NCBI RefSeq assembly: GCF_022846255.1
Contig: NZ_AP025682.1
DNA: 64,000 nucleotides
Direction: 5' to 3' (one strand)
From: Escherichia coli
GTDB taxonomy: Bacteria > Pseudomonadota > Gammaproteobacteria > Enterobacterales > Enterobacteriaceae
A program made the position numbers and the translations under genes. This document shows positions 3,260 to 49,979 of this stretch, piece by piece. The notes under the pieces are model-generated. The model saw only the letters and a list, made by a program, of their open reading frames with translations, was not told where the DNA came from and ran no database searches. Every line of letters starts with the position of its first letter. Position 1 is the first letter of the stretch.

Positions 3260-3374
3260 GAAACGGAGCGGCACCTCTTTTAACCCTTGAAGTCACTGCC
3301 CGTTTCGAGAGTTTCTCAACTCGAATAACTAAAGCCAACGTGAACTTTTGCGGATCTCCAGGATCCGCTTTTTT
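3260..3374 (+). ncRNA. oxyS: OxyS small regulatory RNA (109 nt plus U tail)
   Basis: Sequence GAAACGGAGCGGCACCTCTTTTAACCCTTGAAGTCACTGCCCGTTTCGAGAGTTTCTCAACTCGAATAACTAAAGCCAACGTGAACTTTTGCGGATCTCCAGGATCCGC followed by T8 (intrinsic terminator) read directly; matches remembered oxyS. Confidence 0.88.
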
Positions 3375-3415: not shown

Positions 3416-4699
3416 TTACTCAATCCGATCTTTGACAATAAAGAAGTAACACAGCGCCCCGGTGAACGTCACACAGGCCGCGATAACCAGCGCCAGATTA
3501 AACGAGTGTGTGGTATCCACGACCCAACCGGTTACGATCGGAGCAAAGGAAGCAAAAACAAAACTGCCAAAGTTTTGAATCCCGGCGATGGAAGCCACTT
3601 TTGTTTCTGACACCATCACCTGCACCAGCCCCCATGCAGATGTTCCCGCGAAATGCACGCAGAACAGCGCCATTGAGATAAACGCTACCGCCTGGGCTGG
3701 CGAGGAAGATTGCACGACCAGCAACGTGCCTAATGCCGACATCATCAAACCGCAGACAATCGCCGTTTTACGCGTCTTCGCCAGGTCATAGCCTTTTTTC
3801 GCCAGCCGATCGACAACAATACCGTTAACCCACATCCCGACCGCCGCCGCGAGGAAAGGAATTGCCGCCACCCAACCGGTTTTCGCCAGACTGAAACCTT
3901 GTTCGGCCTGCAAATAACCGGGTAACCACGCGATGTAGAGCCAACCGGTATAATTGACGCCAGAGAAACCTAAAATCATCCCCCAGGTTGTCCGATGCTT
4001 AAACAGCGCCAGCCACTCGCTAAATTGTAACTGTGGACGCGGTTTAACCGGCGCGGAGAGATATGTCCGTTCTTCCTCGGTCAGGACAAACTGCGCCCGG
4101 TTGCGATACCACGCGTACCAACAGATCCCAACCAGAATCCCTGCTACGCCGATGATGACAAACATCGTCCGCCAGCCCCATGCCAGTTGCATCAATACAA
4201 GAGCAGGAGGCGCGATAGCCTGACCGATAACGGTAGATGAGTTAAAAATCCCCAGCGCCGTGCCGCGTTCTTTTTGCGCATACCAGTCGGTGATCGACTT
4301 TACTCCCGCAGGCATAAATGGCGCTTCGCCAATACCCAGACCGATACGCATTAAAATAAAGTGGCTAAAAGAATTAACCATTCCTGTTAATGCCTGCATT
4401 AATGACCAGAATATTAAGCCTGCGCCTAACACTATTCGTGGGCCAAAGCGGTCTAGCAAAATACCGGAAGGAAGTTGTGAAAAACCATAAGACAGAGAAA
4501 ATGCAGAAAGCAAAACACCAAATTCGGTAGCGGATAATCCTAACTCACCACGAATTGCTTCACCTGCCACGCTCAATGACGAACGGTCGAGAAAATTAAC
4601 GATCCCCGCCATAAATAATAAAACCAGGGTCACTGTCTGAATACGACGAATCCGTTGCGGTTTATTACCCGCAACACTGGTTGACACATCAACGTCCAT
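3416..4699 (-). CDS. MFS transporter, anion:cation symporter (sugar-acid/hexuronate-type) family, 427 aa
   Basis: 12-TM-like hydrophobic profile, MFS signature region GxLLDRFGPR, resemblance to DgoT/ExuT/YjjL-type transporters; accessory relative to my memory of K-12 (oxyS directly followed by argH). Confidence 0.8.
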   Translation of the reverse strand: MDVDVSTSVAGNKPQRIRRIQTVTLVLLFMAGIVNFLDRSSLSVAGEAIRGELGLSATEFGVLLSAFSLSYGFSQLPSGILLDRFGPRIVLGAGLIFWSLMQALTGMVNSFSHFILMRIGLGIGEAPFMPAGVKSITDWYAQKERGTALGIFNSSTVIGQAIAPPALVLMQLAWGWRTMFVIIGVAGILVGICWYAWYRNRAQFVLTEEERTYLSAPVKPRPQLQFSEWLALFKHRTTWGMILGFSGVNYTGWLYIAWLPGYLQAEQGFSLAKTGWVAAIPFLAAAVGMWVNGIVVDRLAKKGYDLAKTRKTAIVCGLMMSALGTLLVVQSSSPAQAVAFISMALFCVHFAGTSAWGLVQVMVSETKVASIAGIQNFGSFVFASFAPIVTGWVVDTTHSFNLALVIAACVTFTGALCYFFIVKDRIE

Positions 4700-4765
4700 T
4701 TTTAGCTCCTTGAGCGGAATTAATCGATTTGATGAATATTCAGAAAATAATTAAGCGAACCGCTA

Positions 4766-5980
4766 TTACCAGTTCCACAATGTGCCATCTTCCAGTCGTG
4801 CGACGGGGAGATACGCCGGGTCATACGGATATTTCGCCGCCAGTTTCTCATCGAAAGAAATACCCAGCCCCGGTTCATCGCCTGGGTGCATATAACCTTC
4901 ATCGAAGCGCCAGCTGTGCGGGAAGACTTCAAGCATTTGTTCGGAATAGCCCATGTACTCCTGAACGCCAAAGTTTGGCACCCAGAGGTCAAAATGCAGC
5001 GCCGCCGCATGGCAAACAGGCGATAAATCTGAAGGGCCATGCGAACCGGTACGTACCTGATAAAGCGATGCAAAATCGGCAATCCGTCGCATCCCGGTAA
5101 TGCCGCCTGCATGGGTAATCGTCGTGCGAATATAGTCAATCAGCTGCTCTTCGATTAACTGTTTGCAGTCCCAGATACTGTTAAACACTTCACCGACCGC
5201 AATCGGCGTCACGGTATGCTGGCGAATCAGACGAAAACATTCCTGGTTCTCGGCAGGCGTCGGATCTTCCATCCAGAACAGGCGGTAATCCTCAATGCTC
5301 CTCCCAAAGCGCGCCGCTTCGATGGGGGTCAGGCGATGGTGCATGTCATGCAACAGATGTTCGTTAAAACCGAACTTATTACGCACCGCTTCAAATAACT
5401 TCGGCGTAAAATCGAGATACTTTTCTGAAGACCACAACTGCTCTTCTGGCCACAGGCCTTTGGTTGCTGGTTCATACGCCAGTCCTTTGCCCTTCGCCAG
5501 ACCATAGGTGGTTTGCATACCCGGTACACCACACTGCACACGAATCGCCTTAAAGCCCATCTGCTGGTGCTTTGCATAGTCTTCAAGGACTTCATCAATC
5601 GTCCGCCCGGTGGTGTGGCAATAAACCATCACGCCTTCACGAGAAGCGCCACCAAGCAGTTGATACAATGGCATATTTGCCGCTTTAGCTTTGATATCCC
5701 ACAACGCCATATCAATGGCAGAAATGGCCGACATCGTGACGGGACCACGTCGCCAGTAAGCTCCTTTATAAAAGAATTGCCAGATATCTTCGATACGGCT
5801 GGCATCGCGGCCAATTAATTGAGGACAAAGATGATCTTTCAGATAAGAAGCGACCGACAATTCGCGACCATTTAACGTGGCATCTCCTAATCCACAAAGT
5901 CCGCTTTCAGTGGTTATTTTAAGCGTAACGAAATTACGCCCGGGACAAGTAACAAAAACATCCACAGCAATAATTTTCAT
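4766..5980 (-). CDS. Enolase-superfamily D-mannonate dehydratase (ManD)/RspA-like sugar-acid dehydratase (~404 aa)
   Basis: ORF 4766..6040 trimmed to [43 protein letters not shown]...; strongly resembles E. coli RspA/ManD family; exact start uncertain (5980 vs 6040). Confidence 0.85.
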
Positions 5981-16099: not shown

Positions 16100-16951
16100 A
16101 TGTATCACGACGTCAGCTATCTGCTCTCCCGCCTGATCAACGGCCCGCTGTCCCTGCGCCAGATTTACTTTGCCAGCAGCAACGGCCCGGTGCCCGATCT
16201 TGCGTATCAGGTCGATTTTCCACGGCTGGAAATTGTGCTGGAAGGTGAGTTTATTGATACCGGCGCTGGAGCAGCGTTAGTTCCCGGCGATGTGCTGTAC
16301 GTCCCTGCTGGTGGCTGGAATTTTCCACAATGGCAAGCCCCCGCCACCACCTTTAGCGTGCTGTTTGGCAAACAGCAACTCGGCTTCAGCGTTGTGCAAT
16401 GGGATGGCAAACAATATCAAAATCTGGCGAAGCAACACGTCGCCCGACGCGGCCCGCGCATTGGTTCTTTTCTGCTACAAACGCTCAATGAAATGCAAAT
16501 GCAGTCGCAGGAGCAGCAAACGGCCAGACTTATCGTCGCCAGCCTGCTTAGCCACTGCCGCGATTTGCTCGGCAGCCAAATACAGACCGCCTCACGCAGC
16601 CAGGCTCTATTCGAAGCTATTCGTGATTATATCGACGAACGCTATGCCTCCGCACTTACCCGCGAATCTGTCGCACAGGCGTTCTATATTTCGCCAAATT
16701 ACCTCTCGCACCTGTTTCAAAAAACGGGGGCCATTGGTTTTAACGAATACCTGAATCACACGCGACTGGAGCACGCTAAGACATTATTGAAAGGCTATGA
16801 CCTGAAGGTAAAAGAAGTGGCGCACGCCTGCGGCTTTGTCGACAGCAACTACTTCTGCCGTCTGTTTCGTAAAAATACCGAACGCTCGCCGTCGGAATAT
16901 CGTCGGCAGTACCACAGCCAACTGACAGAAAAACCGACTACTCCAGAATAA
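16100..16951 (+). CDS. yijO: AraC-family transcriptional regulator YijO (283 aa)
   Basis: MYHDVSYLLSRLINGPLSLRQIYFASSNGP...; C-terminal AraC HTH. Confidence 0.88.
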   Translation: MYHDVSYLLSRLINGPLSLRQIYFASSNGPVPDLAYQVDFPRLEIVLEGEFIDTGAGAALVPGDVLYVPAGGWNFPQWQAPATTFSVLFGKQQLGFSVVQWDGKQYQNLAKQHVARRGPRIGSFLLQTLNEMQMQSQEQQTARLIVASLLSHCRDLLGSQIQTASRSQALFEAIRDYIDERYASALTRESVAQAFYISPNYLSHLFQKTGAIGFNEYLNHTRLEHAKTLLKGYDLKVKEVAHACGFVDSNYFCRLFRKNTERSPSEYRRQYHSQLTEKPTTPE

Positions 16952-17279
16952 GATGGGTTTGCTGCGGCGCAGAAAGCACTTTGCGCACTGCGCTCATCAC
17001 CCTCTGCGGCTCACGCAGGAAAGCGTAGATACTGCATTGCACGTAGCGACAATGTTCAAAACGCTCGGCACCGGCAAGCTCGATATCCGTAATTAACAGC
17101 GCAACATCCGCCCGGCGGATATCCTCGTCCGCTAAACGATTCTCCGTTCCCAACGCGCCCTGAGTTTCAATGCTAACGCCCCACTTCTCTAACTGGCACA
17201 ACTTTTCCAGCCGTTCCGCCGCCATATAAGTATGCGCCACGCCGCTTACGCAGGCGGTTACTGCCACCAGATATGCCAT
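16938..17279 (-). CDS. frwD: PTS fructose-like EIIB component FrwD (113 aa)
   Basis: ORF 16938..17342 trimmed to MAYLVAVTACVSGVAHTYMAAERLEK...; PTS IIB Cys motif. Confidence 0.9.
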   Translation of the reverse strand: MAYLVAVTACVSGVAHTYMAAERLEKLCQLEKWGVSIETQGALGTENRLADEDIRRADVALLITDIELAGAERFEHCRYVQCSIYAFLREPQRVMSAVRKVLSAPQQTHLILE

Positions 17280-17280
17280 T

Positions 17281-18159
17281 TTAACCTCCCACGGTAACCT
17301 GAAATCCGGCCCGTTCTGCCATTTCACGCATCGTTGCCACATCGGCTGACGACGGCGCAGAAACCTCTTTCATCGACCATGTTTTCCCCAGCAGGCGGTA
17401 TTTCGGCTCGCCGTACTGATGAAACGGTAACAGATGGATCTGCTTGATATTCAGCGGGATCAGCACGTCAAGCGCCTGCTGCATATTCTCCCGGCTGAGC
17501 GTGAAACCAGGGATCAGCGGTAAACGCGGGATCACGTTGACACCCTCACTCACCAGCAAACGCAGATTCTCCAGCACGCGTTGCAGGTTCATCTTCACCA
17601 CATCCCGCGCCTGAGCCGCATCCATAATTTTTAAATCGAACAACACTTCATCGCACAATTTCGCCAGCGGTAACAGCTTGCTGGCTGGCGCGTCTCCGGC
17701 AGTTTCGATGGCGCATGACACACCCCATAGCCGCAGTCGCTGTAAAAAACGGGTCGCAAACTCCGCCTGCATTAACACTTCGCCGCCAGAAAGCGTGACG
17801 CCACCGCCGGACGTGCGAAAGAAAATGTCATCTTTCATCACTTCCCGTTCCAGAGCGTCAAGGCTGATATCGCGACCAATCCGTTCAAATGCCCCGGAGG
17901 GGCATTCATCCGCATCACGCAAACATTTCGCGCAGTGCAGACATTTCGCCTCTCTGCGCACCGTCTGGATTTTGCCGGAGATCGACTCCGGATTAGCACA
18001 CCATGGGCAAAGATGCGGACAGCCTTTAAAAAAGACCACCGTACGAATGCCCTCGCCGTCATTCAGTGAATAACGCTGAATGTTGAAAATGCGCGCCACA
18101 TCATTGCGGCGCGTTTCCACAACGTTACAGCTGATGCGCTGTCCGGCGGATGATGTCAT
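17281..18159 (-). CDS. pflC: Glycyl-radical enzyme activating protein PflC (radical SAM), 292 aa
   Basis: ORF 17281..18228 trimmed to MTSSAGQRISCNVVETRRNDVARIFNIQRYSLNDGEGIRTVVFFKGCPHLCPWCANPE (CxxxCxxC radical-SAM motif). Confidence 0.9.
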   Translation of the reverse strand: MTSSAGQRISCNVVETRRNDVARIFNIQRYSLNDGEGIRTVVFFKGCPHLCPWCANPESISGKIQTVRREAKCLHCAKCLRDADECPSGAFERIGRDISLDALEREVMKDDIFFRTSGGGVTLSGGEVLMQAEFATRFLQRLRLWGVSCAIETAGDAPASKLLPLAKLCDEVLFDLKIMDAAQARDVVKMNLQRVLENLRLLVSEGVNVIPRLPLIPGFTLSRENMQQALDVLIPLNIKQIHLLPFHQYGEPKYRLLGKTWSMKEVSAPSSADVATMREMAERAGFQVTVGG

Positions 18160-20422
18160 CCTGGATCTCCTTCGACAGTTCGACAAAGAAGGCGCTGTAT
18201 CCGGCAACGCGCACCACCAGCCCGGCATAATCTTGTGGGCGCTGTTGCGCTTCCCGTAACGTGTCGGCGTTCACCACGTTAAACTGAATATGCTGCAACT
18301 TAAGCTGGGTAAACGCCCGTAAGAAGTCGGCTAGTTTGCGTAATCCCGCTTCACCTTCCAGGGTCGCCGGAGTGAATTTCACGTTCAGCAACGTACCGTT
18401 AGACAGCAGCGTATTATCGAGCTTACTGACTGATTTCAGCACCGCCGTTGGCCCTTGTGCATCCTGACCCAGCATGGGTGACAAGCCACCGTCTGCCAGT
18501 TGTTCCCCGGCAAAACGACCGTCTGGCGTCGCGCCAACCACCGATCCCAACGGGACGTGAGCAGAAACGGTATACGATCCTGGCGTGAAGTAGCCGCCGC
18601 GCGGGTTCTGGTATTTTTCCACTTCTTTGCAGTAGTGGCGTAACAGTTCGGCGCTGATGTTATCCACCTCGTCGATATCGTTACCGTATTTCTCGAAGCG
18701 GTTAATTAAGCGAGCGCGGACTTTTTCGCCTTCTGGCGTGGCGAAGTTGGCTTTTAATACCGACAGCAATTCGTCAAAACTTAAACGCTGTTGATCAAAA
18801 ATCATCCCTTTCAACGCATGGAGAGAATCGCTCAGGTTGGCGATACCGATCCCCTGTACGCCGGAGAAGTTATAACGCGCGCCGCCGTCAGTAATATCGC
18901 GGCCTTTTTCCAGACAATCGCTGATAAAAGACGAGAGTAGCGGTACAGGTGCCCAGTCGCGATGGCCGATATCACAAATATTGCTGCCCTCAACCATCAG
19001 GGTGATGTAGTGGCTGATCTTGGCGCGGATCTGTTCCAGTAAACCTTCATAAGTCAGCGCAGCGTTGCCTTCATTTTCATGCAGGCAGATTTCCATCACT
19101 TTCAGCAGGTTAAACATCGCGATGTCATGCAAGCCGTAGGTTCTGCCGGGAATAGATAATTCCACACAGCCCACTACGGAATAGTCGCGCGCATCTTCCA
19201 GCGAAACGCCACGGTTGAGGAACGCTGGCACCACCACTTCATCGTTAAAGATTTGCGGAATACCGGTGCCGAGGCGAATGGTTTCTGCGGTTTTCATCAG
19301 GAACGGCGTGTCGATCAAGGCGTTAGTGCGCACGCCGAGGTTCGGTTGCGGTAATTGCACGCTTTGATAAGCGTCAAGGCAAAGGAACGAAAGCACGTTC
19401 ACCGCGCTACGTCCGTTCTCGGTTAACCCGCCGAGCAGTGCGGTATAGCCGGTAGGGAAACCTGCGAAATAACGCGCGCTACTGGTGGAGCGCAACAGCA
19501 CGATGTCGTTGCATTTCACCCATAAAGATTCGAGCAGTTCTTTCAGGAATGCCGGATCTTCGCCCTGGGTTAATGATGCCTGATAGAACGGCAACATATA
19601 CTGGTCGAAGCGCCCCAACGATAGCGAACTGGCGTTGGATTCGTATTGCAGAATGATGTTCATGTACCAGAATAACTGGCACGCCTGCCAGAACGTCTGC
19701 GGCTTATGTTCGGCGTTATGGCGGGAGATCTCCGCAATGGTCAGCAGTTCTTCGCGACGCGGGCCATCAGTGCAGCTTGCCGCCATCGTTTCCGCCAGTT
19801 CGGCGTAACGCAAAATATGTTTCTGCGAGGCTTCCAGCAGTAACAGCGCTGCCTGATAAAAGTGATTCTCCGGCTGTTGCTGACAATGTTGCTGCATCTG
19901 TGCCACCAGCTCCCCCAGCCCGTGATTCAGCAGGCGCGGGTAATCAATAATAATGTGCCCCTGGCCTTTATCCGTCTGGTTGATGCTGAAAATCTGCGTG
20001 CTGGTCGCGGCTTTTACTTCATCCGTCATCTGCCCGTTGATGAAATCTTTCATCGAACGTTTTTCCCAGTACGGGAACAACTCTTCGCGGTAGATACGTT
20101 TATCTTCTTCGCTGATAGCAAAGCGGTCCTGCGGACGCGTCGGGAATTGATCCAGCTCTTTCAGCAGCCAGTAAGGGTCCATTTCCGGCGACATAATCCC
20201 GGCGCGTGGTTTTACGGTGCGGTTACCGGCAATCAGTTCTTCATCACGAATCGAAATTTCAACGTGTTCAAGGATATACGCTGTTGCTTTCGCCCGACGC
20301 ATTATCACCGGCTCCCCTTCGGTTTGCCGATGGCTGGCGGTATAAAGCAACGCCCGCTCCAGCGAGATTTCACGGGTATTGGCAAACAGTGCAGTTTTGA
20401 GGCGAGAGATACGATTCGTCAT
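18125..20422 (-). CDS. pflD: Glycyl-radical enzyme (pyruvate formate-lyase-like) PflD, 765 aa
   Basis: MTNRISRLKTALFANTREISLERALLY...; C-terminal glycyl radical motif RVAGYSAFF. Confidence 0.95.
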   Translation of the reverse strand: MTNRISRLKTALFANTREISLERALLYTASHRQTEGEPVIMRRAKATAYILEHVEISIRDEELIAGNRTVKPRAGIMSPEMDPYWLLKELDQFPTRPQDRFAISEEDKRIYREELFPYWEKRSMKDFINGQMTDEVKAATSTQIFSINQTDKGQGHIIIDYPRLLNHGLGELVAQMQQHCQQQPENHFYQAALLLLEASQKHILRYAELAETMAASCTDGPRREELLTIAEISRHNAEHKPQTFWQACQLFWYMNIILQYESNASSLSLGRFDQYMLPFYQASLTQGEDPAFLKELLESLWVKCNDIVLLRSTSSARYFAGFPTGYTALLGGLTENGRSAVNVLSFLCLDAYQSVQLPQPNLGVRTNALIDTPFLMKTAETIRLGTGIPQIFNDEVVVPAFLNRGVSLEDARDYSVVGCVELSIPGRTYGLHDIAMFNLLKVMEICLHENEGNAALTYEGLLEQIRAKISHYITLMVEGSNICDIGHRDWAPVPLLSSFISDCLEKGRDITDGGARYNFSGVQGIGIANLSDSLHALKGMIFDQQRLSFDELLSVLKANFATPEGEKVRARLINRFEKYGNDIDEVDNISAELLRHYCKEVEKYQNPRGGYFTPGSYTVSAHVPLGSVVGATPDGRFAGEQLADGGLSPMLGQDAQGPTAVLKSVSKLDNTLLSNGTLLNVKFTPATLEGEAGLRKLADFLRAFTQLKLQHIQFNVVNADTLREAQQRPQDYAGLVVRVAGYSAFFVELSKEIQDDIIRRTAHQL

Positions 20423-20472
20423 GAGGAACTCCTGTGGGAAAGCGAACCCGCCCTTGCGGGCGGGGTAAGAAC

Positions 20473-20793
20473 TTAAGCGGTTTGTGCCAGGTGAGCTTCA
20501 ATTTTGCTCATAATGGCGTCAGCACGTTTTACCGCGTCGCTGATGTTGACACGCACGATAGTCTTGCCAGCAAAACGCTCTTCAAATTTGATGCCGATAT
20601 CTTTGGTCAAAATCACCATATCGGCGCTTGCCACGTCTTCCGCAGTCAGTTCATTTTCCAGACCAATCGACCCCTGGGTTTCTACTTTCACTTCCCAGCC
20701 TTTCGCTTTCGCGGCGCTTTCCAGCGCCTCTGCCGCCATATAAGTATGGGCAACACCTGAAGGACATGCGGTTACTGCGATAATTTTCGTCAT
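20473..20793 (-). CDS. frwB: PTS fructose-like EIIB component FrwB (106 aa)
   Basis: MTKIIAVTACPSGVAHTYMAAEALESAAKAKGWEVKVETQG... Confidence 0.92.
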   Translation of the reverse strand: MTKIIAVTACPSGVAHTYMAAEALESAAKAKGWEVKVETQGSIGLENELTAEDVASADMVILTKDIGIKFEERFAGKTIVRVNISDAVKRADAIMSKIEAHLAQTA

Positions 20794-20807
20794 GGCTCGT
20801 TCCTCAA

Positions 20808-21887
20808 TTAATTAATTTCAAAATCCAGATCCAGGTCGTCTTCCTTCTCTTCAGTTGAAGACCCATTTTTACGCGCCAGACTTTTCAGCACGTTCACGCA
20901 GACTGCCGTCACAACCGCCCCGACAGCCACTGCCGCGATGTAACCCAACTTACCTTCAACCACCGGCAGCACAATCAGACCACCCCAGCCTGCATAGCAC
21001 TGCGCACCGACCAGCGCCGCAGTTACCGCACCACAAACTGAACCGACCATGATGGAAGGAATGACACGCAGCGGATCGGCAGCGGCGAAAGGAATCGCCC
21101 CTTCAGTAACGCCAACACAGCCCATCACCAGTGCCGCCTTGCCGGTTTCGCGCTCTTCTGCGGAGAAATTTTTACGACCAATCAGCGTCGCCAACCCCAT
21201 CCCCAGCGGCGGGATACAAATACCCACGGCAGCAATGGCCACCACGGTATATACACCCTGAGCAACGCAAATCAGCATGAAGGCATAGGCCACTTTGTTA
21301 ACCGGACCGCCCATATCGAACGCCAGCATCAGCCCCATGATCACCGCCAGCATAACAATGCTGCCCTGCTGCATCCCCTGTAGCCACTGAGTCAGGCTGT
21401 TGGTCAACGCCCCTACAGGCTCGCCCAGCCCCCACATCATGACGCCAGCGGTAATCAGTGTGCCGACGATAGGAATGATGAAGATTGGCATCACCGAGCG
21501 CAGAACTTTATGCACCGGAATTTTCTTCAGGTAATGCACCACGATGCCGCCGATAATCCCGGCGATCAGTGCACCAAAGAAGCCCGCACCAAAGCTGTTA
21601 CCAACCCAGGCACCGATAGCGCATGGAGCCAGCGCAGAACGTTCTGCAATGGAATAACCGATGTAAGCGGCGAGGAAAGGCACCATCAGCGTCAAACCTG
21701 CAACGCCGATATCAAACAGTTTTTTCAGATTCGGATCGGCTACGGCATCCGGCACTGCGCCTTTGCCATACAACATGACGGAAACCGCCAGCAAAATACC
21801 GCCCGATACCACGAAGGGAATCATGTGTGAAACGCCCGTCATTAAATGCTGACGGGTATTTTTCAGGATCTGCACCAACTCATTCAT
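20808..21887 (-). CDS. frwC: PTS fructose-like EIIC permease FrwC (359 aa)
   Basis: ORF 20808..22007 trimmed to MNELVQILKNTRQHLMTGVSHMIPFVV...; polytopic membrane protein. Confidence 0.9.
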   Translation of the reverse strand: MNELVQILKNTRQHLMTGVSHMIPFVVSGGILLAVSVMLYGKGAVPDAVADPNLKKLFDIGVAGLTLMVPFLAAYIGYSIAERSALAPCAIGAWVGNSFGAGFFGALIAGIIGGIVVHYLKKIPVHKVLRSVMPIFIIPIVGTLITAGVMMWGLGEPVGALTNSLTQWLQGMQQGSIVMLAVIMGLMLAFDMGGPVNKVAYAFMLICVAQGVYTVVAIAAVGICIPPLGMGLATLIGRKNFSAEERETGKAALVMGCVGVTEGAIPFAAADPLRVIPSIMVGSVCGAVTAALVGAQCYAGWGGLIVLPVVEGKLGYIAAVAVGAVVTAVCVNVLKSLARKNGSSTEEKEDDLDLDFEIN

Positions 21888-22195
21888 AAGCTGCTCCCGG
21901 GCTTGCGAAAGCCCATGTCCATATTTTTGATGGAAGAAACAATAGGCAATCGCAGGCGGAGCAAACAGTGGATAAAAAGGCCATTTACTGGACTTTTGTA
22001 ATATCAATACAAAAATGCGATCCGCCTCATAACTTGCGATAATCCGGAAGTACGCCGCAAAACGGCGTCTTGTGAGACGCGTCGCAAATTGACGGTTACA
22101 TTACATTTGTCCAGCTTTTGGCAGATTTGTCACATGGCAGGCCGTTGCCGTGCGCTCTTATCCTGTAAACAGAAAACCGTACCGGGAGAAAGGCA

Positions 22196-24697
22196 ATGGC
22201 CCTGATTGTGGAATTTATTTGTGAGCTACCTAACGGCGTACATGCGCGTCCGGCAAGCCACGTTGAAACGCTGTGTAATACTTTTTCATCACAAATTGAG
22301 TGGCATAACCTGCGCACTGACCGCAAGGGCAACGCCAAAAGCGCCCTTGCGCTGATTGGCACCGACACGCTGGCGGGCGATAACTGCCAGTTACTGATTT
22401 CCGGGGCCGACGAACAGGAAGCGCACCAGCGTTTAAGCCAATGGCTGCGCGATGAATTCCCCCACTGCGATGCGCCGCTGGCAGAAGTTAAATCTGACGA
22501 ACTGGAACCACTGCCGGTTTCACTGACCAATCTGAATCCGCAAATTATCCGCGCCCGCACCGTGTGCAGCGGTAGCGCAGGCGGCATTCTGACGCCGATC
22601 TCTTCTTTAGATCTCAATGCGCTGGGTAATCTTCCCGCAGCCAAAGGCGTTGACGCCGAACAATCCGCACTGGAAAACGGTCTGACGCTGGTACTGAAAA
22701 ACATAGAGTTTCGTCTGCTGGATAGCGACGGTGCTACCAGCGCGATTCTGGAAGCGCACCGATCCCTGGCTGGCGATACTTCCCTGCGCGAACATTTACT
22801 GGCAGGTGTCAGCGCCGGATTAAGCTGCGCCGAAGCGATTGTTGCCAGTGCGAATCACTTTTGCGAAGAGTTCGCCCGTTCCAGCAGCAGCTACCTGCAA
22901 GAACGTGCCCTGGACGTACGCGACGTCTGCTTCCAGTTACTCCAGCAAATCTACGGTGAGCAACGCTTCCCGGCACCGGGCAAACTGACGCAGCCCGCCA
23001 TTTGTATGGCTGATGAACTGACCCCCAGCCAGTTCCTCGAACTGGATAAAAATCATCTCAAAGGTCTGTTACTGAAAAGTGGCGGCACCACATCACATAC
23101 GGTGATCCTTGCCCGTTCGTTCAACATTCCGACGCTGGTAGGTGTGGATATTGCTGCCCTTACTCCGTGGCAGCATCAGACGATTTATATCGACGGCAAC
23201 GCAGGGGCGATTGTGGTTGAGCCAGGGGAATCCGTGGCCCGTTATTATCAGCAAGAAGCCCGCGTACAGGACGCTCTGCGTGAGCAACAGCGTGTCTGGC
23301 TGACCCAGCAAGCGCGTACCGCAGACGGTATCCGCATTGAAATTGCCGCTAACATCGCTCACTCCGTGGAAGCGCAGGCCGCATTCGGCAATGGTGCGGA
23401 AGGCGTTGGTTTGTTCCGCACTGAAATGCTCTATATGGATCGCACCAGTGCACCGGGTGAAAGCGAGCTGTACAACATTTTTTGTCAGGCGCTGGAGTCT
23501 GCCAACGGACGCAGCATTATTGTGCGCACTATGGACATTGGCGGTGATAAACCCGTTGATTATCTGAACATTCCGGCAGAAGCTAACCCGTTCCTCGGTT
23601 ATCGCGCGGTGCGTATTTATGAAGAATACGCGTCGTTGTTTACCACACAACTACGGTCGATCCTGCGCGCCTCTGCTCACGGCAGCCTGAAAATCATGAT
23701 CCCGATGATCTCCTCAATGGAAGAGATCTTATGGGTGAAAGAAAAACTGGCGGAAGCCAAACAGCAACTGCGTAACGAACACATTCCGTTTGATGAGAAG
23801 ATCCAGCTCGGCATCATGCTGGAAGTGCCGTCGGTGATGTTCATCATCGATCAATGCTGCGAAGAGATTGATTTCTTTAGTATCGGTAGTAATGACCTGA
23901 CGCAATATCTGCTGGCAGTGGATCGCGATAACGCTAAGGTTACTCGTCACTATAACAGCCTGAATCCAGCATTCTTGCGGGCGCTCGATTACGCCGTGCA
24001 GGCGGTGCATCGCCAGGGCAAATGGATTGGTCTGTGCGGTGAACTGGGAGCGAAAGGTTCCGTGCTGCCGTTGCTGGTCGGTTTAGGGCTGGATGAGCTG
24101 AGCATGAGCGCACCGTCAATTCCGGCGGCGAAAGCGCGAATGGCGCAACTTGATAGCCGTGAGTGCCGCCAGTTGCTCAACCAGGCAATGGCCTGCCGTA
24201 CTTCGCTGGAAGTGGAACACCTGCTGGCACAATTCCGCATGACACAACAAGACGCACCGCTGGTCACCGCCGAGTGCATCACACTGGAAAGCGACTGGCG
24301 CAGCAAAGAAGAAGTGCTCAAAGGCATGACCGATAACCTGCTGCTGGCGGGCCGCTGTCGCTATCCGCGTAAACTGGAAGCCGACTTGTGGGCGCGCGAG
24401 GCCGTTTTCTCTACCGGTCTGGGCTTTAGTTTTGCCATTCCCCACAGCAAATCAGAACACATTGAGCAATCCACCATCAGCGTGGCGCGTTTGCAAGCGC
24501 CGGTGCGCTGGGGCGATGATGAAGCGCAATTCATCATTATGTTAACCCTGAACAAACATGCTGCGGGCGATCAGCACATGCGCATTTTCTCGCGCCTCGC
24601 TCGTCGCATCATGCACGAAGAATTCCGTAACGCGCTGGTTAACGCCGCCTCTGCCGACGCTATCGCCAGCCTGCTGCAACATGAACTGGAACTGTAA
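22196..24697 (+). CDS. ptsA: Multiphosphoryl transfer protein PtsA/FrwA (HPr-EI-EIIA fusion), 833 aa
   Basis: [30 protein letters not shown]... (HPr-like N-terminus), EI-like core with [23 protein letters not shown]-terminal IIA-like domain. Confidence 0.92.
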
Positions 24698-24708
24698 AAG
24701 GAAACATC

Positions 24709-25371
24709 ATGGAACTGTATCTGGACACCGCTAACGTCGCAGAAGTCGAACGTCTGGCACGCATATTCCCGATTGCCGGGGTGACAACTAACCCGAGCAT
24801 TATCGCTGCCAGCAAGGAGTCCATCTGGGAAGTGCTGCCGCGCCTTCAAAAAGCGATCGGTGATGAGGGAATTCTGTTTGCTCAGACCATGAGCCGCGAC
24901 GCGCAGGGTATGGTGAAAGAAGCGAAACACCTGCGCGACGCTATTCCGGGCATTGTGGTGAAAATTCCGGTAACCTCTGAAGGTCTGGCAGCAATTAAAA
25001 TGCTGAAGAAAGAAGGCATTACTACGCTGGGAACCGCAGTGTACAGCGCCGCGCAAGGATTACTGGCGGCGCTGGCTGGAGCCAAATACGTTGCTCCATA
25101 CGTTAACCGCGTAGATGCCCAGGGCGGTGACGGCATTCGTACTGTACAGGAGTTGCAAGCGTTACTGGAAATGCATGCGCCAGAAAGCATGGTGCTGGCT
25201 GCCAGCTTTAAAACACCACGTCAGGCGCTGGATTGTTTGCTGGCTGGATGTGAATCCATCACACTGCCCTTAGATGTAGCGCAACAAATGCTTAACACCC
25301 CTGCGGTAGAGTCAGCTATAGAGAAGTTCGAGCACGACTGGAATGCCGCATTTGGCACTACTCATCTCTAA
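24709..25371 (+). CDS. fsaB: Fructose-6-phosphate aldolase 2 (220 aa)
   Basis: [37 protein letters not shown]...; transaldolase-like fold. Confidence 0.93.
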
Positions 25372-25381
25372 AGGAGTAATT

Positions 25382-26485
25382 ATGGACCGCATTATTCAAT
25401 CACCAGGTAAATACATCCAGGGCGCAGATGTAATTAATCGTCTGGGCGAGTACCTGAAGCCACTGGCGGAACGCTGGTTAGTGGTGGGTGACAAATTTGT
25501 TTTAGGTTTTGCTCAATCCACTGTCGAGAAAAGCTTTAAAGATGCTGGACTGGTAGTAGAAATTGCGCCGTTTGGCGGTGAATGTTCGCAAAATGAGATC
25601 GACCGTCTGCGTGGCATCGCGGAGACTGCGCAGTGTGGCGCAATTCTCGGTATCGGTGGCGGAAAAACCCTCGATACTGCCAAAGCACTGGCACATTTCA
25701 TGGGTGTTCCGGTAGCGATCGCACCGACTATCGCTTCCACCGACGCACCGTGCAGCGCATTGTCTGTTATCTACACCGATGAGGGTGAGTTTGACCGCTA
25801 TCTGCTGTTGCCAAATAACCCGAATATGGTCATTGTCGACACCAAAATCGTCGCTGGCGCGCCCGCGCGTCTGTTAGCGGCGGGTATTGGCGATGCGCTG
25901 GCAACCTGGTTTGAAGCGCGTGCCTGTTCCCGTAGCGGCGCGACCACCATGGCGGGTGGCAAGTGCACTCAGGCAGCGCTGGCACTGGCTGAACTGTGCT
26001 ACAACACCCTGCTGGAAGAAGGCGAAAAAGCGATGCTTGCCGCCGAACAGCATGTAGTGACTCCGGCGCTGGAGCGCGTGATTGAAGCGAACACCTATTT
26101 GAGTGGCGTTGGTTTTGAAAGCGGCGGGCTGGCGGCGGCACACGCGGTACATAACGGCCTGACCGCTATCCCGGACGCGCATCACTATTATCATGGTGAA
26201 AAAGTGGCATTCGGTACGCTGACGCAGCTGGTTCTGGAAAACGCGCCGGTGGAGGAAATCGAAACCGTAGCTGCGCTTAGCCATGCGGTAGGTTTGCCAA
26301 TAACTCTCGCTCAACTGGATATTAAAGAAGATGTCCCGGCGAAAATGCGAATTGTGGCAGAAGCGGCATGTGCAGAAGGTGAAACCATCCACAACATGCC
26401 TGGCGGCGCGACGCCAGATCAGGTTTACGCCGCACTGCTGGTAGCCGACCAGTATGGTCAGCGTTTCCTGCAAGAGTGGGAATAA
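25382..26485 (+). CDS. gldA: Glycerol dehydrogenase (367 aa)
   Basis: ORF 25343..26485 trimmed to [37 protein letters not shown]... Confidence 0.93.
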
Positions 26486-32184: not shown

Positions 32185-33744
32185 TTATTTGATATCCTTC
32201 ACGCGCATACCGTTGAGCTGTTCATCCGTAATGGTGTTGCCCGCTTTGAAGTAATCAACCACCGCGTGATAAACGTAATAACCGCCCGTTGTGTTACGCG
32301 CTTTCCCTTCGGTAAAGGCGGTAAAACCATCTCCACCATCAGCAAGGAAACTCTGAGTAGCAATGTGATAAACCGTCGCATCTTCAATGGGTTTGCCATT
32401 CAGAGTCAGTGTGATTACCCGCTGACCAACCGGCTTGCTGCTGTCGTACTTCATTTCCAGGCCTTTCGATACCTGTAAAACGCCATTGCTTAAACTTGCG
32501 CCGTGTTCCATCAGACTGCGTAATTGTTTACCCGTGAGTTCCATCGTCACCAGTTCGTTGGGGAACGGGAACGTACTGATAACGCCGCCCATCGTGATCG
32601 CCCCTGCGGGGATCTCATTGCGGATACCACCAGAGTTTGTTAACGCCAGTTGGGTATTTTTACCCGCTGCTGCCAGTAAAGCGTCAGCCGCCAGGTTCCC
32701 GAGGGAAGCCGATTCACCATAGGCACGTTTTAATTCAACCGGCGATTGCGCCACCGTTTGTTGCACCACTTCATCAAGCTTTTTATTCCAGCCGTCGATC
32801 ACCTGTTTCGTTTGCGGATCGGGCTTCCACTCGTCAGCGTAAATGGTTTTAAGCTCGAAGTTTTTCACCGTAAAATTATGCGGCTTCTCTTTGTAGTCGA
32901 GAACCAGTTTGCCCACATCAATCCCGCCGCTGTCAGTGGAGAGGATGAGCGTATTGCCGACTTTAATCGGTTCCGGCGTACCCACATGTGCATGTCCGGT
33001 GATCAAAATATCCAGCCCTTTCACCTGACTTGCCGTCTGAATATCTTTATCCAACGCGCGACGCACATCTGTGCCTCCCATACTGGACTGGCGGGCCGGA
33101 ACACCTTCATGGATCAGGGCGACGGTCAAATCAACCTTGCCTTTAAGTTCATCGATATAACGTTGTAGCCATTTAATTTCATCACGCGCCTCAATACCCA
33201 CTCGCGTGGCAGCAGATACTGTGTCATTAAAGGCAAATACACCGTGCAAACCTATAACGCCTATTTTCACACCGTCTTTTTCGATGATGGTATAGGGCTT
33301 ATCCCAGAATGATTTACTGCTGTTCTGATAAAAAACATTGCCCTGCACAATCGGGAATTTTGCCTGACTCAACTGTAATAATGTGTTGTCCCAGCCGTGG
33401 TCAAATTCATGGTTGCCTATCGTGACGGCATCAAACGGCATAGTATTCATAATATCGATAATAGCCTTACCTTTGGTCAGGCTGCTGATATATGGCCCGG
33501 TAAAATAGTCGCCCGCATCAAAAAACCATGTCGCTTTATTTTTTGCTTTTTCTTGCTTAACCAGCGTAGTGATATTTGCCCAGCCGCCAATATCCCGTTT
33601 ACCGTTCGCAATCCACGGCACTTTATAAGGCTCTACATGTGCATGGAGGTCGTTAGTATAAATAATGGTGACATCTTTGGCGCAAGCCCAGAACGGCAAT
33701 GTTAATGCGATACCCGCAGCAAGTATTTTAATTTTCATAAACAA
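32185..33744 (-). CDS. Secreted bifunctional metallophosphatase/5'-nucleotidase (UshA/CpdB family), paralog A, 519 aa
   Basis: Signal peptide [22 protein letters not shown]; metallophosphatase motifs [26 protein letters not shown]; C-terminal 5'-nucleotidase-domain motifs NSGGIR, FPFPN, GGDGF; absent from metL-metF interval in my memory of K-12. Confidence 0.85.
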
Positions 33745-33797
33745 TCCCTTTCAGTGAGATAAAGGATTGCTACATTACGTTCTGAAAGACTTATTTA

Positions 33798-33813
33798 TGT
33801 GAGAGTAATCACA
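33798..33813. promoter_or_regulatory. CRP-type binding site (TGTGA-N6-TCACA) in divergent promoter between paralog A and the zinc-ribbon ORF
   Basis: Sequence TGTGAGAGTAATCACA read directly; perfect match to both CRP half-sites with 6-bp spacer. Confidence 0.5.
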
Positions 33814-33870
33814 TCCGCAGGGGATAGTTGCCGGACAAAATCAACGACCTTGTGAAATCGTTGGTGATAT

Positions 33871-34995
33871 ATGTCGACTCTGTTTACGATTAATGCCTGT
33901 AAAACGTTCGGTTGCCGAAATTTGGGATTGGCCTCATCGGAAGATTACAGTTGGCCAGACTATAAACTGGGTTATCCGGCACTGCACTGTCGGGCATGTG
34001 GAAGTTACCCGCCGTTGTTTGACGAACAGCAATTTCGTGACTGGTTGTCAGTTCACTTATCTACTTTTGCAACTGAGAAAGGTCATTTCTGCCCGGTATG
34101 TTATGGCACAGACATGATTTGTTATGGTCACAATCCACAGGGTTCGCAACGCATTCAATGCCGTAACTGCAAAAAAGTCTGGACGCCTAAAAAATATCAG
34201 AAAGAAATTACGCATCCCCAGGCCATTGAAACCGTTCAACTGTTCATACCCTTTCAAGGGGCCAGTGCAGTACAAAAACTGTATGTTTTAGTCAGTCTTG
34301 ACGCCACTCGTGGCAACATTCTTCATCTCTCCACGAATTATACGCAACATCAGACAGGAGACAGTCTGCGGTACAGTTACAAGGGCAACACAGAACCAAC
34401 TATGCACCATCGCGATATCGTGCAGAAGGTAGATATGCGTGAAGCGCAATTCTTGCGCCGGAGCCAGTTCGATGAAATTCAGTATGGCAGTGCTGTACTC
34501 AAGCGCAACGGTAAGGGAGCCATACTACGCCCGGTTATCACGGCACACGGGCATTTCAGAATACTGAAAATCCGCTATCCAGATGTCAAAACGCATATTA
34601 TTTCACACGAATGTTTTCTAAGAGGCGCAATTATTACAGCCTGGGCAGATCAGTTCCGCCAACAACAAGGTGAACTTTGGTTCGTAGAAGAAGAAATCAG
34701 TGACAGTAACGCTGATACGCCCTGGCATTTTAAGGGAACGACATACCATGGTTGGTGGCAAAATCAGTGGCAGCGCTGGGAGCAGGGGAATAACTGCAAG
34801 ATGGTCTGCCTACTCACGGGAGCCTGCTTAGAAAGGGGCGCAAATGTTTCTCTGGCAACCAGTCGTTGTTTTATCACATGGCTGACAGACCAACACGACT
34901 TTACCCAAAGCGCGTTATTATCCGCAGGTCGCGTAACACAAATGCTGACCTCACTGGCGTTAAAATACAATGAATCGCTCACTCCATCTTGTTAG
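33871..34995 (+). CDS. Hypothetical cytoplasmic protein with N-terminal tandem CxxC zinc ribbons (InsA-like), 374 aa; function unknown
   Basis: ATG start at 33871; four CxxC pairs in first ~100 aa (CKTFGC, CRACG, CPVCYG...QRIQCRNCKKVW); no signal peptide; long uninterrupted ORF in AT-rich island. Confidence 0.6.
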   Translation: MSTLFTINACKTFGCRNLGLASSEDYSWPDYKLGYPALHCRACGSYPPLFDEQQFRDWLSVHLSTFATEKGHFCPVCYGTDMICYGHNPQGSQRIQCRNCKKVWTPKKYQKEITHPQAIETVQLFIPFQGASAVQKLYVLVSLDATRGNILHLSTNYTQHQTGDSLRYSYKGNTEPTMHHRDIVQKVDMREAQFLRRSQFDEIQYGSAVLKRNGKGAILRPVITAHGHFRILKIRYPDVKTHIISHECFLRGAIITAWADQFRQQQGELWFVEEEISDSNADTPWHFKGTTYHGWWQNQWQRWEQGNNCKMVCLLTGACLERGANVSLATSRCFITWLTDQHDFTQSALLSAGRVTQMLTSLALKYNESLTPSC

Positions 34996-35224
34996 TCAAT
35001 ACACTCGACAAACGACCATAAATTAAGAGAGAGCACTACCTTTCATTTAATTAAATATATAAATGTATGACCGTGAAATATAATCATGGTCAATGTTTAA
35101 TTAATAACATTATTTGTTACTAAGATCACACAATACTTTTCTGAACTATGCTTACATAAAATAAGACACGATGTGTCTTTTATTTAAATAATTCAACAAA
35201 TGTAACACACCCTATCCAGGAGGG

Positions 35225-36778
35225 ATGATGAAAACTGTATTTACAACATTATCAGTCATATTCGGCGTGATATTTTCTCACAGTGTTCTAGCTCAGGACG
35301 TTACTATTTATTATACGAATGACATTCACGCACATGTCAATCCGGCAAAAATCATCGCTGTTGATAAGAACAGACTTATAGGTGGTATGGCTAATATTGC
35401 AGGCATCGTTAATGAAGCGAAGAAAAAAAGCAAAGATGTGTTTTTCTTTGATGCAGGCGACTATTTTACCGGGCCGTATATCAGCACCCTGACCAAAGGT
35501 GAAGCTATTATTGATATCATGAACACTATGCCCTTTGATGCGGTGTCTGTTGGTAATCACGAGTTCGATCACGGTGTGCCCAATATGGTGTCTCAGTTAT
35601 CAAAAGCAAAATTTCCCATTCTGCTGGGAAATATCTACTACACCGATACGAATAAACCAGTTTGGGATCATCCGTGGACCATTATCGAAAAAGATGGTTT
35701 AAAGATTGGTGTGATTGGATTGCATGGCGCATTCGCTTTCTATGATACAGTCGCGGCAAAAGCACGTGAAGGCGTAGAAGCCAGAGACGAAATTAAATAT
35801 TTAAATAAAGCACTTGCAGAATTAAAAGGTAAAGTCGACATTACCGTTTTGCTAATTCACGAAGGTGTCCCGGCGCGTCAATCAAGCTTTGGTAGTAAAG
35901 ATGTGGAGCGGCTACTACAGGCAGATATTGAGACAGCTAAAAAAGTGAATGGTGTTGATGTCTTAATTACCGGTCACGCACATGTCGGAACACCGCAACC
36001 AATAAAAGTTAATAACACATTAATTGTATCTACCGATGCATACGGCACCAACATCGGAAAACTTGTGCTTGATTACAATCCGAAAACGAAGAAAATTGAT
36101 AGTTATAATGGTGAGTTAATCACCATCTTTGCAGATCAATTTAAACCTGACACCATCGTTCAAAATACTATTGATAAATGGAGTGCAAAGCTTAACAAAA
36201 TAACACAGGAAGTTGTCGGCCATTCTCCCGTAGTTTTAACACGTGAGTATGGTAGTTCCTCTTCTACCGGCAACCTTATTCTTGATGCAATGATGGAAAA
36301 AACACCTGATGCCGTTGCCGGATTTCAAAATAGCGGTGGGATGCGAGCTGATTTTCCTAAAGGCGATATCACACTGGGAGATGTTATTAGCACATTCCCC
36401 TTTAATAATGACCTCATCGAGATGGATTTGACGGGCCGCGATCTCAAATCATTGATGACGCATGCAACCAATCTAACTAACGGTGTGTTACAAGTTTCTA
36501 AAAGTGTTGCGGTTGTCTATGACAGCAAAAAACCACTCAACCAACGGTTAATCTCTTTCACCATTAACGGCAAACCCGTGGAAGATAATCAAACATATCG
36601 TATTGCCACGCACTCCTTTTGTGCCAGTGGTGGTGACGGTTTTGAAGCATTTTTGAATGGAAAAAATGTGAAAACGATACCGGGAACAACCTCGGCGGAA
36701 TCTATCATCGATTATTTCAAAAATCACAAGCCTATCACCCCAGACTTAACTAAACGAGTCATGGACGTCGCCAAATAA
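35225..36778 (+). CDS. Secreted bifunctional metallophosphatase/5'-nucleotidase (UshA/CpdB family), paralog B, 517 aa
   Basis: Strong SD (AGGAGGG) then MMKTVFTTLSVIFGVIFSHSVLAQDVTIYYTNDIHAHV...; same motif set as paralog A (GDYFTG, GNHEFD, GHAHVG, NSGGMR, GGDGF). Confidence 0.85.
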   Translation: MMKTVFTTLSVIFGVIFSHSVLAQDVTIYYTNDIHAHVNPAKIIAVDKNRLIGGMANIAGIVNEAKKKSKDVFFFDAGDYFTGPYISTLTKGEAIIDIMNTMPFDAVSVGNHEFDHGVPNMVSQLSKAKFPILLGNIYYTDTNKPVWDHPWTIIEKDGLKIGVIGLHGAFAFYDTVAAKAREGVEARDEIKYLNKALAELKGKVDITVLLIHEGVPARQSSFGSKDVERLLQADIETAKKVNGVDVLITGHAHVGTPQPIKVNNTLIVSTDAYGTNIGKLVLDYNPKTKKIDSYNGELITIFADQFKPDTIVQNTIDKWSAKLNKITQEVVGHSPVVLTREYGSSSSTGNLILDAMMEKTPDAVAGFQNSGGMRADFPKGDITLGDVISTFPFNNDLIEMDLTGRDLKSLMTHATNLTNGVLQVSKSVAVVYDSKKPLNQRLISFTINGKPVEDNQTYRIATHSFCASGGDGFEAFLNGKNVKTIPGTTSAESIIDYFKNHKPITPDLTKRVMDVAK

Positions 36779-36818
36779 AATCTCATTTATCAGTCAATTT
36801 ATTTAACAAGGAATGTGA

Positions 36819-49380: not shown

Positions 49381-49448
49381 TAATTGCATTATGCCCCGTA
49401 CTTTTGTACGGGGTTTGTACTCTGTATTCGTAACCAAGGGGTCAGCTC

Positions 49449-49979
49449 GTGACAACTATAGTAAGCGTACGCCGTAACGGCCATGTGGTCATCGCTGGTG
49501 ATGGTCAGGCCACGTTGGGCAATACCGTAATGAAAGGCAACGTGAAAAAGGTCCGCCGTCTGTACAACGACAAAGTCATCGCGGGCTTTGCGGGCGGTAC
49601 TGCGGATGCTTTTACGCTGTTCGAACTGTTTGAACGTAAACTGGAAATGCATCAGGGCCATCTGGTCAAAGCCGCCGTTGAGCTGGCGAAAGACTGGCGT
49701 ACCGATCGCATGCTGCGCAAACTTGAAGCACTGCTGGCAGTCGCGGATGAAACTGCATCGCTTATCATCACCGGTAACGGTGACGTGGTGCAGCCAGAAA
49801 ACGATCTTATTGCTATCGGCTCCGGCGGCCCTTACGCCCAGGCTGCGGCGCGCGCGCTGTTAGAAAACACTGAACTTAGCGCCCGTGAAATTGCTGAAAA
49901 GGCGTTGGATATTGCAGGCGACATTTGCATCTATACCAACCATTTCCACACCATCGAAGAATTAAGCTACAAAGCGTAA
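49449..49979 (+). CDS. hslV: ATP-dependent protease subunit HslV (176 aa)
   Basis: [38 protein letters not shown]... N-terminal Thr nucleophile. Confidence 0.97.

Follow-up and report, generated by a model that had tools for sequence, protein, structure and literature searches.

Gene content and layout of the locus

The stretch of DNA analysed here (64,000 nucleotides (nt) of contig NZ_AP025682.1, referred to as the window, to which all positions refer) is part of an Escherichia coli chromosome and carries a nine-gene locus comprising the glycyl-radical enzyme PflD, its activase PflC, components of a phosphotransferase system (PTS), an aldolase, a dehydrogenase, and a transcription factor. 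Based on the open reading frame (ORF) listing and the RefSeq annotation of strain ATCC 11775, whose annotation coordinates across the locus equal those of the window exactly, five co-directional genes are encoded on the minus strand: frwC (20808–21887; PTS EIIC permease of the fructose family, 359 amino acids (aa)), frwB (20473–20793; fructose-family PTS EIIB, 106 aa), pflD (18125–20422; 765 aa), pflC (17281–18159; radical-SAM activase of PflD, 292 aa), and frwD (16938–17279; second fructose-family EIIB, 113 aa). Divergent from frwC across a 308-nt spacer, the plus strand encodes ptsA (22196–24697; fused HPr-EI-EIIA(Fru) multiphosphoryl transfer protein, 833 aa), fsaB (24709–25371; fructose-6-phosphate aldolase 2, 220 aa), and gldA (25382–26485; NADH-dependent L-1,2-propanediol/glycerol dehydrogenase, 367 aa). 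At the other end of the block, yijO (16100–16951, plus strand), which encodes an AraC-family transcription factor, converges on frwD with an overlap of 14 nt.

The stop codon of pflD at 18125 and the ATG of pflC at 18159 give an overlap of 35 nt, which is identical in Salmonella, Lelliottia, and Edwardsiella. The original prediction for this DNA had described five co-directional, tightly packed genes divergent from ptsA-fsaB-gldA as well as a 35-bp pflD/pflC overlap, and both descriptions agree with the ORF listing, the RefSeq annotation, and the coordinates given above, with the five-gene block lying on the minus strand. Of the span predicted for the block, 16938–22007, the end at 16938 was retained and the end at 22007 was not, as the latter corresponds to the TTG that opens the longest ORF, whereas the ATG at 21887 is the start codon of frwC. 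The TTG start was rejected because this ATG is preceded by a GGGAG Shine-Dalgarno sequence and the model NF007787 aligns from it over positions 1–359 of 359; the 120 nt between the two codons are conserved non-coding control sequence. Longer alternative starts were likewise rejected for pflC (ATG 18228), frwD (ATG 17342), and gldA (ATG 25343), whose annotated ATGs have Shine-Dalgarno sequences and are covered end to end by equivalog models. Every start codon in the cluster is preceded by a good Shine-Dalgarno sequence.

Enzyme class of PflD and PflC

PflD consists of a PFL-like barrel (PF02901, residues 1–626, 702 bits) followed by a C-terminal glycine-radical domain (PF01228, Gly_radical, residues 645–747, 108 bits). 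The glycine-radical motif RVAGYSAFF, which fits RVxG[FWY], occupies residues 738–746 with Gly741 as the radical position, and the cysteine loop reads GCVE (residues 418–421), i.e., one catalytic cysteine (Cys419) and a glutamate (Glu421) in a C-x-E arrangement as putative general base. In the alignment with the B12-independent glycerol dehydratase 1r8w, all four residues of this loop pair with the GCVE of that enzyme. The acyl-enzyme chemistry of pyruvate formate-lyase (PFL) needs two adjacent cysteines (Cys418/Cys419 of E. coli PflB), and no such Cys-Cys pair is present in the loop of PflD, which has a single Cys in G-C-V-E. Among solved structures, the best relative was PDB entry 8yjo, deposited as “Probable dehydratase PflD” (1720 bits), followed by 8id0 and then by glycerol dehydratase 1r8w (646 bits), whereas the true pyruvate formate-lyase 1h16 reached only 118 bits. 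Similarly, PflD stayed below the cut-off of the PFL equivalog TIGR01255 (120 bits, cut-off 994), while it scored 1342 bits against TIGR01774 (PFL2-3; cut-off 678) and 1723 bits against the equivalog NF007437 (“formate C-acetyltransferase”). Judged by motifs and scores, PflD is a member of the glycyl-radical eliminase group.

The activase PflC was matched by NF007483 (629 bits, cut-off 326), by TIGR02494 for glycyl-radical enzyme activating proteins (264 bits, cut-off 174), and by the Pfam domains Radical_SAM and Fer4_12, and has the cluster motif CX3CX2C as CPHLCPWC at residues 47–54. Both signatures named by the original prediction, the RVAGYSAFF of the glycyl-radical enzyme and the radical-SAM CxxxCxxC, were hence found in place.

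In the homologue search with PflD, the best 120 matches were from Enterobacterales only and had at least 89% identity. Among clustered protein representatives, true PflD relatives fall in one cluster, and the next full-length match is 47% identical. The genomic contexts of two distant PflD-like relatives were a 3.8-kb contig with enzyme and activase only, and a truncated enzyme beside a DeoR regulator.

Phosphotransferase system, aldolase, and dehydrogenase

All PTS proteins of the locus were assigned by family models. FrwC scored 719 bits against NF007787 (cut-off 426) and 301 bits against TIGR01427. FrwB was matched by NF007783 (210 bits, cut-off 135) and TIGR00829 (138 bits), and contains the motif AVTACPSGVAHTYMAAE with the active-site Cys10; FrwD was matched by NF007747 (225 bits, cut-off 153) and Pfam PTS_IIB, and contains the motif AVTACVSGVAHTYMAAE, also with the active-site Cys10. 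PtsA (481 bits against TIGR01417) is composed of the Pfam domains PTS-HPr (residues 7–84), PEP-utilisers_N (123–237), PEP-utilizers (266–337), PEP-utilizers_C (363–653), and PTS_EIIA_2 (690–829), in which the predicted phosphorylated histidines are His16 (GVHARPA), His301 (GGTTSHT), and His750 (AIPHS). The assignment of these His and Cys residues to phosphorelay motifs rests on established knowledge of the PTS. On this assignment, a fructose-family phosphorelay is predicted to be complete at the locus, with the EI, HPr, and EIIA histidines, the EIIB cysteine, and the EIIC permease.

FsaB was matched by TIGR00875 (351 bits, cut-off 246) and by structures of fructose-6-phosphate aldolase in the PDB at E-values of about 1e-97, and GldA, which is 100% identical to GldA of E. 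coli K-12, by NF047954 (753 bits, cut-off 700). The fsaB gene has a synonymous divergence (dS) from K-12 of 0.42 (91.6% nucleotide identity), with about 0.10–0.24 in neighbouring genes and 98.2% identity at the protein level; the high value points to either recombination in this stretch or an old allele.

Conservation and selection

Of 5426 complete E. coli genomes, 5425 contain a match to the 5070-nt region of the locus, and in 5393 the match extends over 80% or more of this region. The best genome matches had 99.4–99.5% identity and included ATCC 11775, and the strain of the window is closest to isolates such as this one. The corresponding locus of E. coli K-12, b3945–b3953, has the same nine genes in the same order and orientation, with the same lengths and the same 35-nt and 14-nt overlaps, and the window differs from it by alleles only; the PflD orthologue is b3951 in the same synteny. 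All nine proteins have K-12 lengths, no internal stops, and 98.0–100% aa identity to K-12 (YijO 98.9%, FrwD 99.1%, PflD 98.6% over 765 residues, FrwB 100%, FrwC 99.4%); among the allelic differences, PflD has 11 substitutions, PflC 6, and FsaB 4. Those of PflD, with the residue of the window before the position and that of K-12 after it, are M41L, S141N, S216N, G220A, P221Q, E238Q, A282T, P290A, L384F, I541V, and D543E. The arrangement had previously been called intact and free of frameshifts, which these lengths and the absence of internal stops bear out.

Per gene, the ratio of nonsynonymous to synonymous substitution rates (dN/dS) was 0.00–0.10 against K-12 and 0.02–0.11 against Salmonella (frwD was left out of the latter comparison because the lengths differ). 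In frwB, 4.7% of the nucleotides differ from K-12 with zero aa changes. These substitution patterns indicate that the cluster is under strong purifying selection. Since the genes are intact, dN/dS is low (0.00–0.11), Shine-Dalgarno sequences are in place, and the locus is near-universal in E. coli, a reading of the cluster as pseudogenes or as cryptic was rejected. Together with the phosphorelay residues, the same observations support the expectation of the original prediction that the cluster is likely functional under anaerobic conditions in this strain.

Salmonella and Lelliottia also carry this gene block, both at the ppc-katG position. The block of Edwardsiella tarda ATCC 23685 is flanked by unrelated genes, with uvrC/pgsA to one side and ato genes to the other; it is devoid of gldA and keeps a yijO-like AraC gene, and PflD of this strain is 91% identical. 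The adjacency of yijO to the cluster at two different chromosomal positions suggests that the block moved as a unit.

Substrate of PflD and proposed pathway

The original prediction described as unclear what PflD and this PTS act on, which is outdated for PflD: its substrate was identified in 2024. As relayed by section 5.1 of PMC12441222, E. coli PflD cleaves 1,5-anhydromannitol-6-phosphate (1,5-AM6P) to 1-deoxyfructose-6-phosphate after phosphorylation of the polyol by a PTS (Ma et al., J Am Chem Soc 2024;146:26187, doi 10.1021/jacs.4c07718). The same section credits these authors with the anaerobic 1,5-anhydroglucitol and 1,5-anhydromannitol pathways, which support growth of E. coli, and states that the PflD reaction requires a glycyl radical and is hence strictly anaerobic, and that the activities are specific to C2 epimers, i.e., YbiW acts on 1,5-anhydroglucitol-6-phosphate (1,5-AG6P) and PflD on 1,5-AM6P. 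Structures have been deposited in the PDB for PflD (8yjo) and YbiW (8id7, 8yjn). Sugar phosphates had been among the candidate substrates of the original prediction, a guess that the reported 1,5-AM6P proves right, and the in vitro activation with sugar phosphates and the mutant phenotypes proposed at that time have, going by this summary, in essence already been obtained for the 98.6%-identical K-12 orthologue. The locus, part of the E. coli core genome, is therefore very probably a cluster for breaking down 1,5-anhydro-D-mannitol anaerobically, a route termed ‘anhydroglycolysis’; the function of the cluster is already explained, and the finding is real yet already known.

In the proposed pathway, PtsA would be phosphorylated by phosphoenolpyruvate (PEP), the phosphate would be passed via His301, His16, and His750 to Cys10 of FrwB and/or FrwD, and FrwC would bring in 1,5-anhydromannitol as the 6-phosphate. 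The gene context suggests the Frw PTS specifically as the importer of this polyol. Radical-SAM activase chemistry on glycyl-radical enzymes is established for the family, and PflC would accordingly place the radical on Gly741 of PflD in the second step. Subsequently, the radical would move to Cys419, which would abstract a hydrogen adjacent to the C1–O5 ring bond, and the ring C–O would be eliminated with Glu421 as base, in the way of the hydroxyl group in glycyl-radical diol dehydratases, to give open-chain 1-deoxyfructose-6-phosphate; this ring-opening mechanism is proposed because of the eliminase-type GCVE loop. FsaA and FsaB are said to cleave 1-deoxyfructose-6-phosphate to glyceraldehyde-3-phosphate and hydroxyacetone, and GldA reportedly reduces hydroxyacetone to 1,2-propanediol. 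From the enzyme identities of FsaB and GldA together with these reported roles, FsaB would be expected to split the PflD product, with glyceraldehyde-3-phosphate entering glycolysis, and GldA with NADH to convert the remaining hydroxyacetone to 1,2-propanediol. The pathway would be confined to anaerobiosis because the glycyl radical is oxygen-sensitive.

Several points weigh against this assignment. The polyol 1,5-anhydromannitol is called non-physiological in mammals in PMC12441222, and PtsA was linked to a putative PTS of anaerobic fructose catabolism in an older report, as cited by PMC6643234. Nothing at the locus singles out FrwCBD/PtsA over another PTS as the carrier of the polyol, and PflD of the window differs from the K-12 enzyme at the 11 positions mentioned above. 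In the control region between frwC and ptsA, neither an FNR-like site (with up to 2 mismatches) nor a sigma-70 consensus match was found; overall, the sigma-70 scan returned 6 sites, compared with 7.6 ± 3.3 in shuffled sequence. Finally, for the growth phenotype and the parts played by FsaB and GldA, the assignment draws on second-hand accounts.

The first two of these points also favour the best-surviving alternative, in which fructose or another common ketose or polyol would be the true substrate taken up by the Frw PTS, and 1,5-anhydromannitol an in vitro or side substrate. FrwC, FrwB, FrwD, and the EIIA domain of PtsA all belong to the fructose PTS family, and the conservation of the locus (5425 of 5426 genomes, dN/dS about 0.03) suggests a substrate that is often encountered. 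However, fructose has a route into glycolysis via FruBKA and would gain nothing from a radical ring-opening. The activities relayed in PMC12441222 are specific for 1,5-AG6P (YbiW) and 1,5-AM6P (PflD), and a 1-deoxy-ketose as product agrees with PflD being constantly linked to an aldolase and a hydroxyacetone/propanediol dehydrogenase. We hence regard this alternative as unlikely.

Less probable still is that PflD acts as another formate-lyase for pyruvate or a 2-keto acid (‘formate C-acetyltransferase 2’), with a PTS sugar giving rise to the keto acid that would be converted to acyl-CoA and formate. The RefSeq/NCBIfam name (NF007437) as well as the shared PFL-like fold and glycyl-radical domain speak for it, but the loop has a single Cys followed by Glu, the score against TIGR01255 is far below its cut-off, PFL structures are matched much more weakly than glycerol dehydratase, the structure of the enzyme was deposited as a probable dehydratase, and the activity reported in PMC12441222 is C–O cleavage of 1,5-AM6P. 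Because the Cys-Cys pair is missing, the PFL model failed, and the published biochemistry differs, calling PflD a “formate C-acetyltransferase” and PflC its activating enzyme is a misnomer. RefSeq and the NCBIfam models NF007437 and NF007483 still spread both names across thousands of genomes.

That the cluster is silent in this strain, i.e., intact in sequence and never expressed, is hardly credible. In its favour are the scans of the control region, which returned neither a sigma-70 consensus promoter nor an FNR site, the ‘putative’ gene names retained for decades, and the reported under-expression of frwC and pflD, among other genes, on dihydroxyacetone under aerobic conditions. Against it are the low dN/dS in comparison with both K-12 and Salmonella, the near-universal presence of the locus, long control-region blocks that are invariant in five taxa, the Shine-Dalgarno sequence at each start codon, the growth of E. 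coli on anhydro-polyols relayed in PMC12441222, and the reported anaerobic activation of fsaB and gldA.

Comparison with known systems

A paralogous counterpart of the 1,5-anhydromannitol system is formed by YbiW/YbiY (PflF/PflE) and FsaA (PDB 8id7, 8yjn), which have the same enzyme class and, according to the summary cited above, the same reported product, 1-deoxyfructose-6-phosphate. The substrate of the YbiW system is the C2 epimer, with the glucitol and not the mannitol configuration, and its genes are at a different chromosomal locus outside the window. Although YbiW is a full-length homologue of PflD (479 bits), it is farther from PflD by score than glycerol dehydratase (646 bits). Two E. 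coli enzymes acting on C2-epimeric substrates with one product fit the existence of two paralogous systems.

Among the glycyl-radical 1,2-eliminases (Clostridium butyricum glycerol dehydratase 1r8w, propanediol dehydratase 5i2a, CutC, and HypD), 1r8w shares the RVAGYSA and GCVE motifs with PflD as well as full-length homology, and PflD likely follows the same logic of radical beta-elimination. The leaving group in PflD would be the ring ether oxygen of a phosphorylated anhydro-sugar, which results in ring opening, whereas the dehydratases release water; moreover, the partners of PflD are a PTS and an aldolase, while those of the 1,2-eliminases are an aldehyde reductase or a microcompartment. 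With PflB/PflA (1h16), PflD/PflC have the superfamily fold, the C-terminal glycyl-radical domain, and a radical-SAM activase partner in common, but the 118-bit match to PflB spans the C-terminal two thirds only, and PflB cleaves a C–C bond to formate where PflD performs a C–O elimination.

Control region, YijO, and RNA elements

In an alignment of five taxa, the control region between frwC and ptsA (21888–22195, 308 nt, no strand assigned) had a mean column identity of 80%, with long invariant blocks (among them 21937–21951, 21974–22002, and 22016–22035) split by variable stretches, and it differs from K-12 at 8 of 308 nt. A CRP-like site at 22071–22086 has conserved half-sites and a variable centre and is supported mainly by this cross-species conservation. 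The direct repeat ATTTGTC (22105–22111 and 22125–22131) has a period of 20 nt, a geometry that would suit an AraC-type protein, which makes the repeat a candidate operator.

YijO has an HTH match (Pfam HTH_18/HTH_AraC) at residues 192–270, and no family match was obtained for its N-terminal ~160 residues. It is listed as an uncharacterised transcription factor in PMC4797297 and PMC9308461, and frwD-yijO appears in an RNA sequencing list as an ‘excludon’, i.e., a convergent transcript overlap. In all four taxa compared (E. coli, Salmonella, Lelliottia, and Edwardsiella tarda ATCC 23685, the last with the yijO-like gene at a different chromosomal site), yijO adjoins the cluster with the 14-nt frwD overlap. 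Because of this adjacency, the footprinted control region, and the excludon listing, YijO may be the cognate regulator of the cluster. A further-reaching proposal is that YijO would be a dedicated sensor and activator of both divergent promoters, responding to 1,5-anhydromannitol or its 6-phosphate and acting together with CRP on the ATTTGTC repeat and the CRP-like site, with read-through into yijO as antisense feedback; this is put forward tentatively, as an idea slightly more apt to fail than to hold.

A terminator-like scan returned a stable, GC-rich hairpin, CCCGCCC-GCAA-GGGCGGG, at 20447–20464 (minus strand) in the 50-nt spacer between frwB and pflD. The hairpin is preserved in K-12, where it includes a G-U pair, and the Lelliottia spacer reads CCCACCC-TTCG-GGGTGGG, a compensatory change; in Salmonella and Edwardsiella, the spacer has another, longer sequence (REP-like by eye) in which the pairs are not kept. 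The element is probably an intra-operon RNA stem-loop and may serve RNA stability or attenuation. A search against Rfam returned nothing inside the locus.

Other features of the window

Outside the locus, Rfam matches above the gathering score were the OxyS small RNA (3260–3369, plus strand), the L31 ribosomal-protein leader upstream of rpmE (44730–44782, minus strand), and the ClpQY (hslVU) promoter element (49394–49451, plus strand). Positions 1–745 of the window had no BLAST match to the corresponding stretch of ATCC 11775, and the remainder is collinear save for an IS4-family insertion of ~1.4 kb (~52913–54338) between rraA and zapB, which contains a 448-aa transposase ORF (52926–54272, minus strand), is missing from this site in ATCC 11775, and occupies it in other strains. 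Between oxyR/OxyS and argH (3416–5980), a major facilitator superfamily (MFS) transporter gene and manD (D-mannonate dehydratase) are located; in the window, the MFS ORF runs uninterrupted over 428 codons to its terminal stop, whereas the ATCC 11775 annotation lists it as a pseudogene that has an internal stop. For the metF-metL interval (32185–39375), the collinear, 99%-identical sequence of ATCC 11775 is annotated with three paralogous ‘bifunctional metallophosphatase/5′-nucleotidase’ genes, a hypothetical gene, and a Tsx-like nucleoside channel.

Implications

With the identification of 2024, the substrate of PflD is no longer an open question, and the published pathway would give FsaB, GldA, and the Frw PTS a physiological role. 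A core locus of E. coli is thereby tied to anhydro-sugars, which is relevant to gut ecology and to the biology of 1,5-anhydroglucitol in humans.

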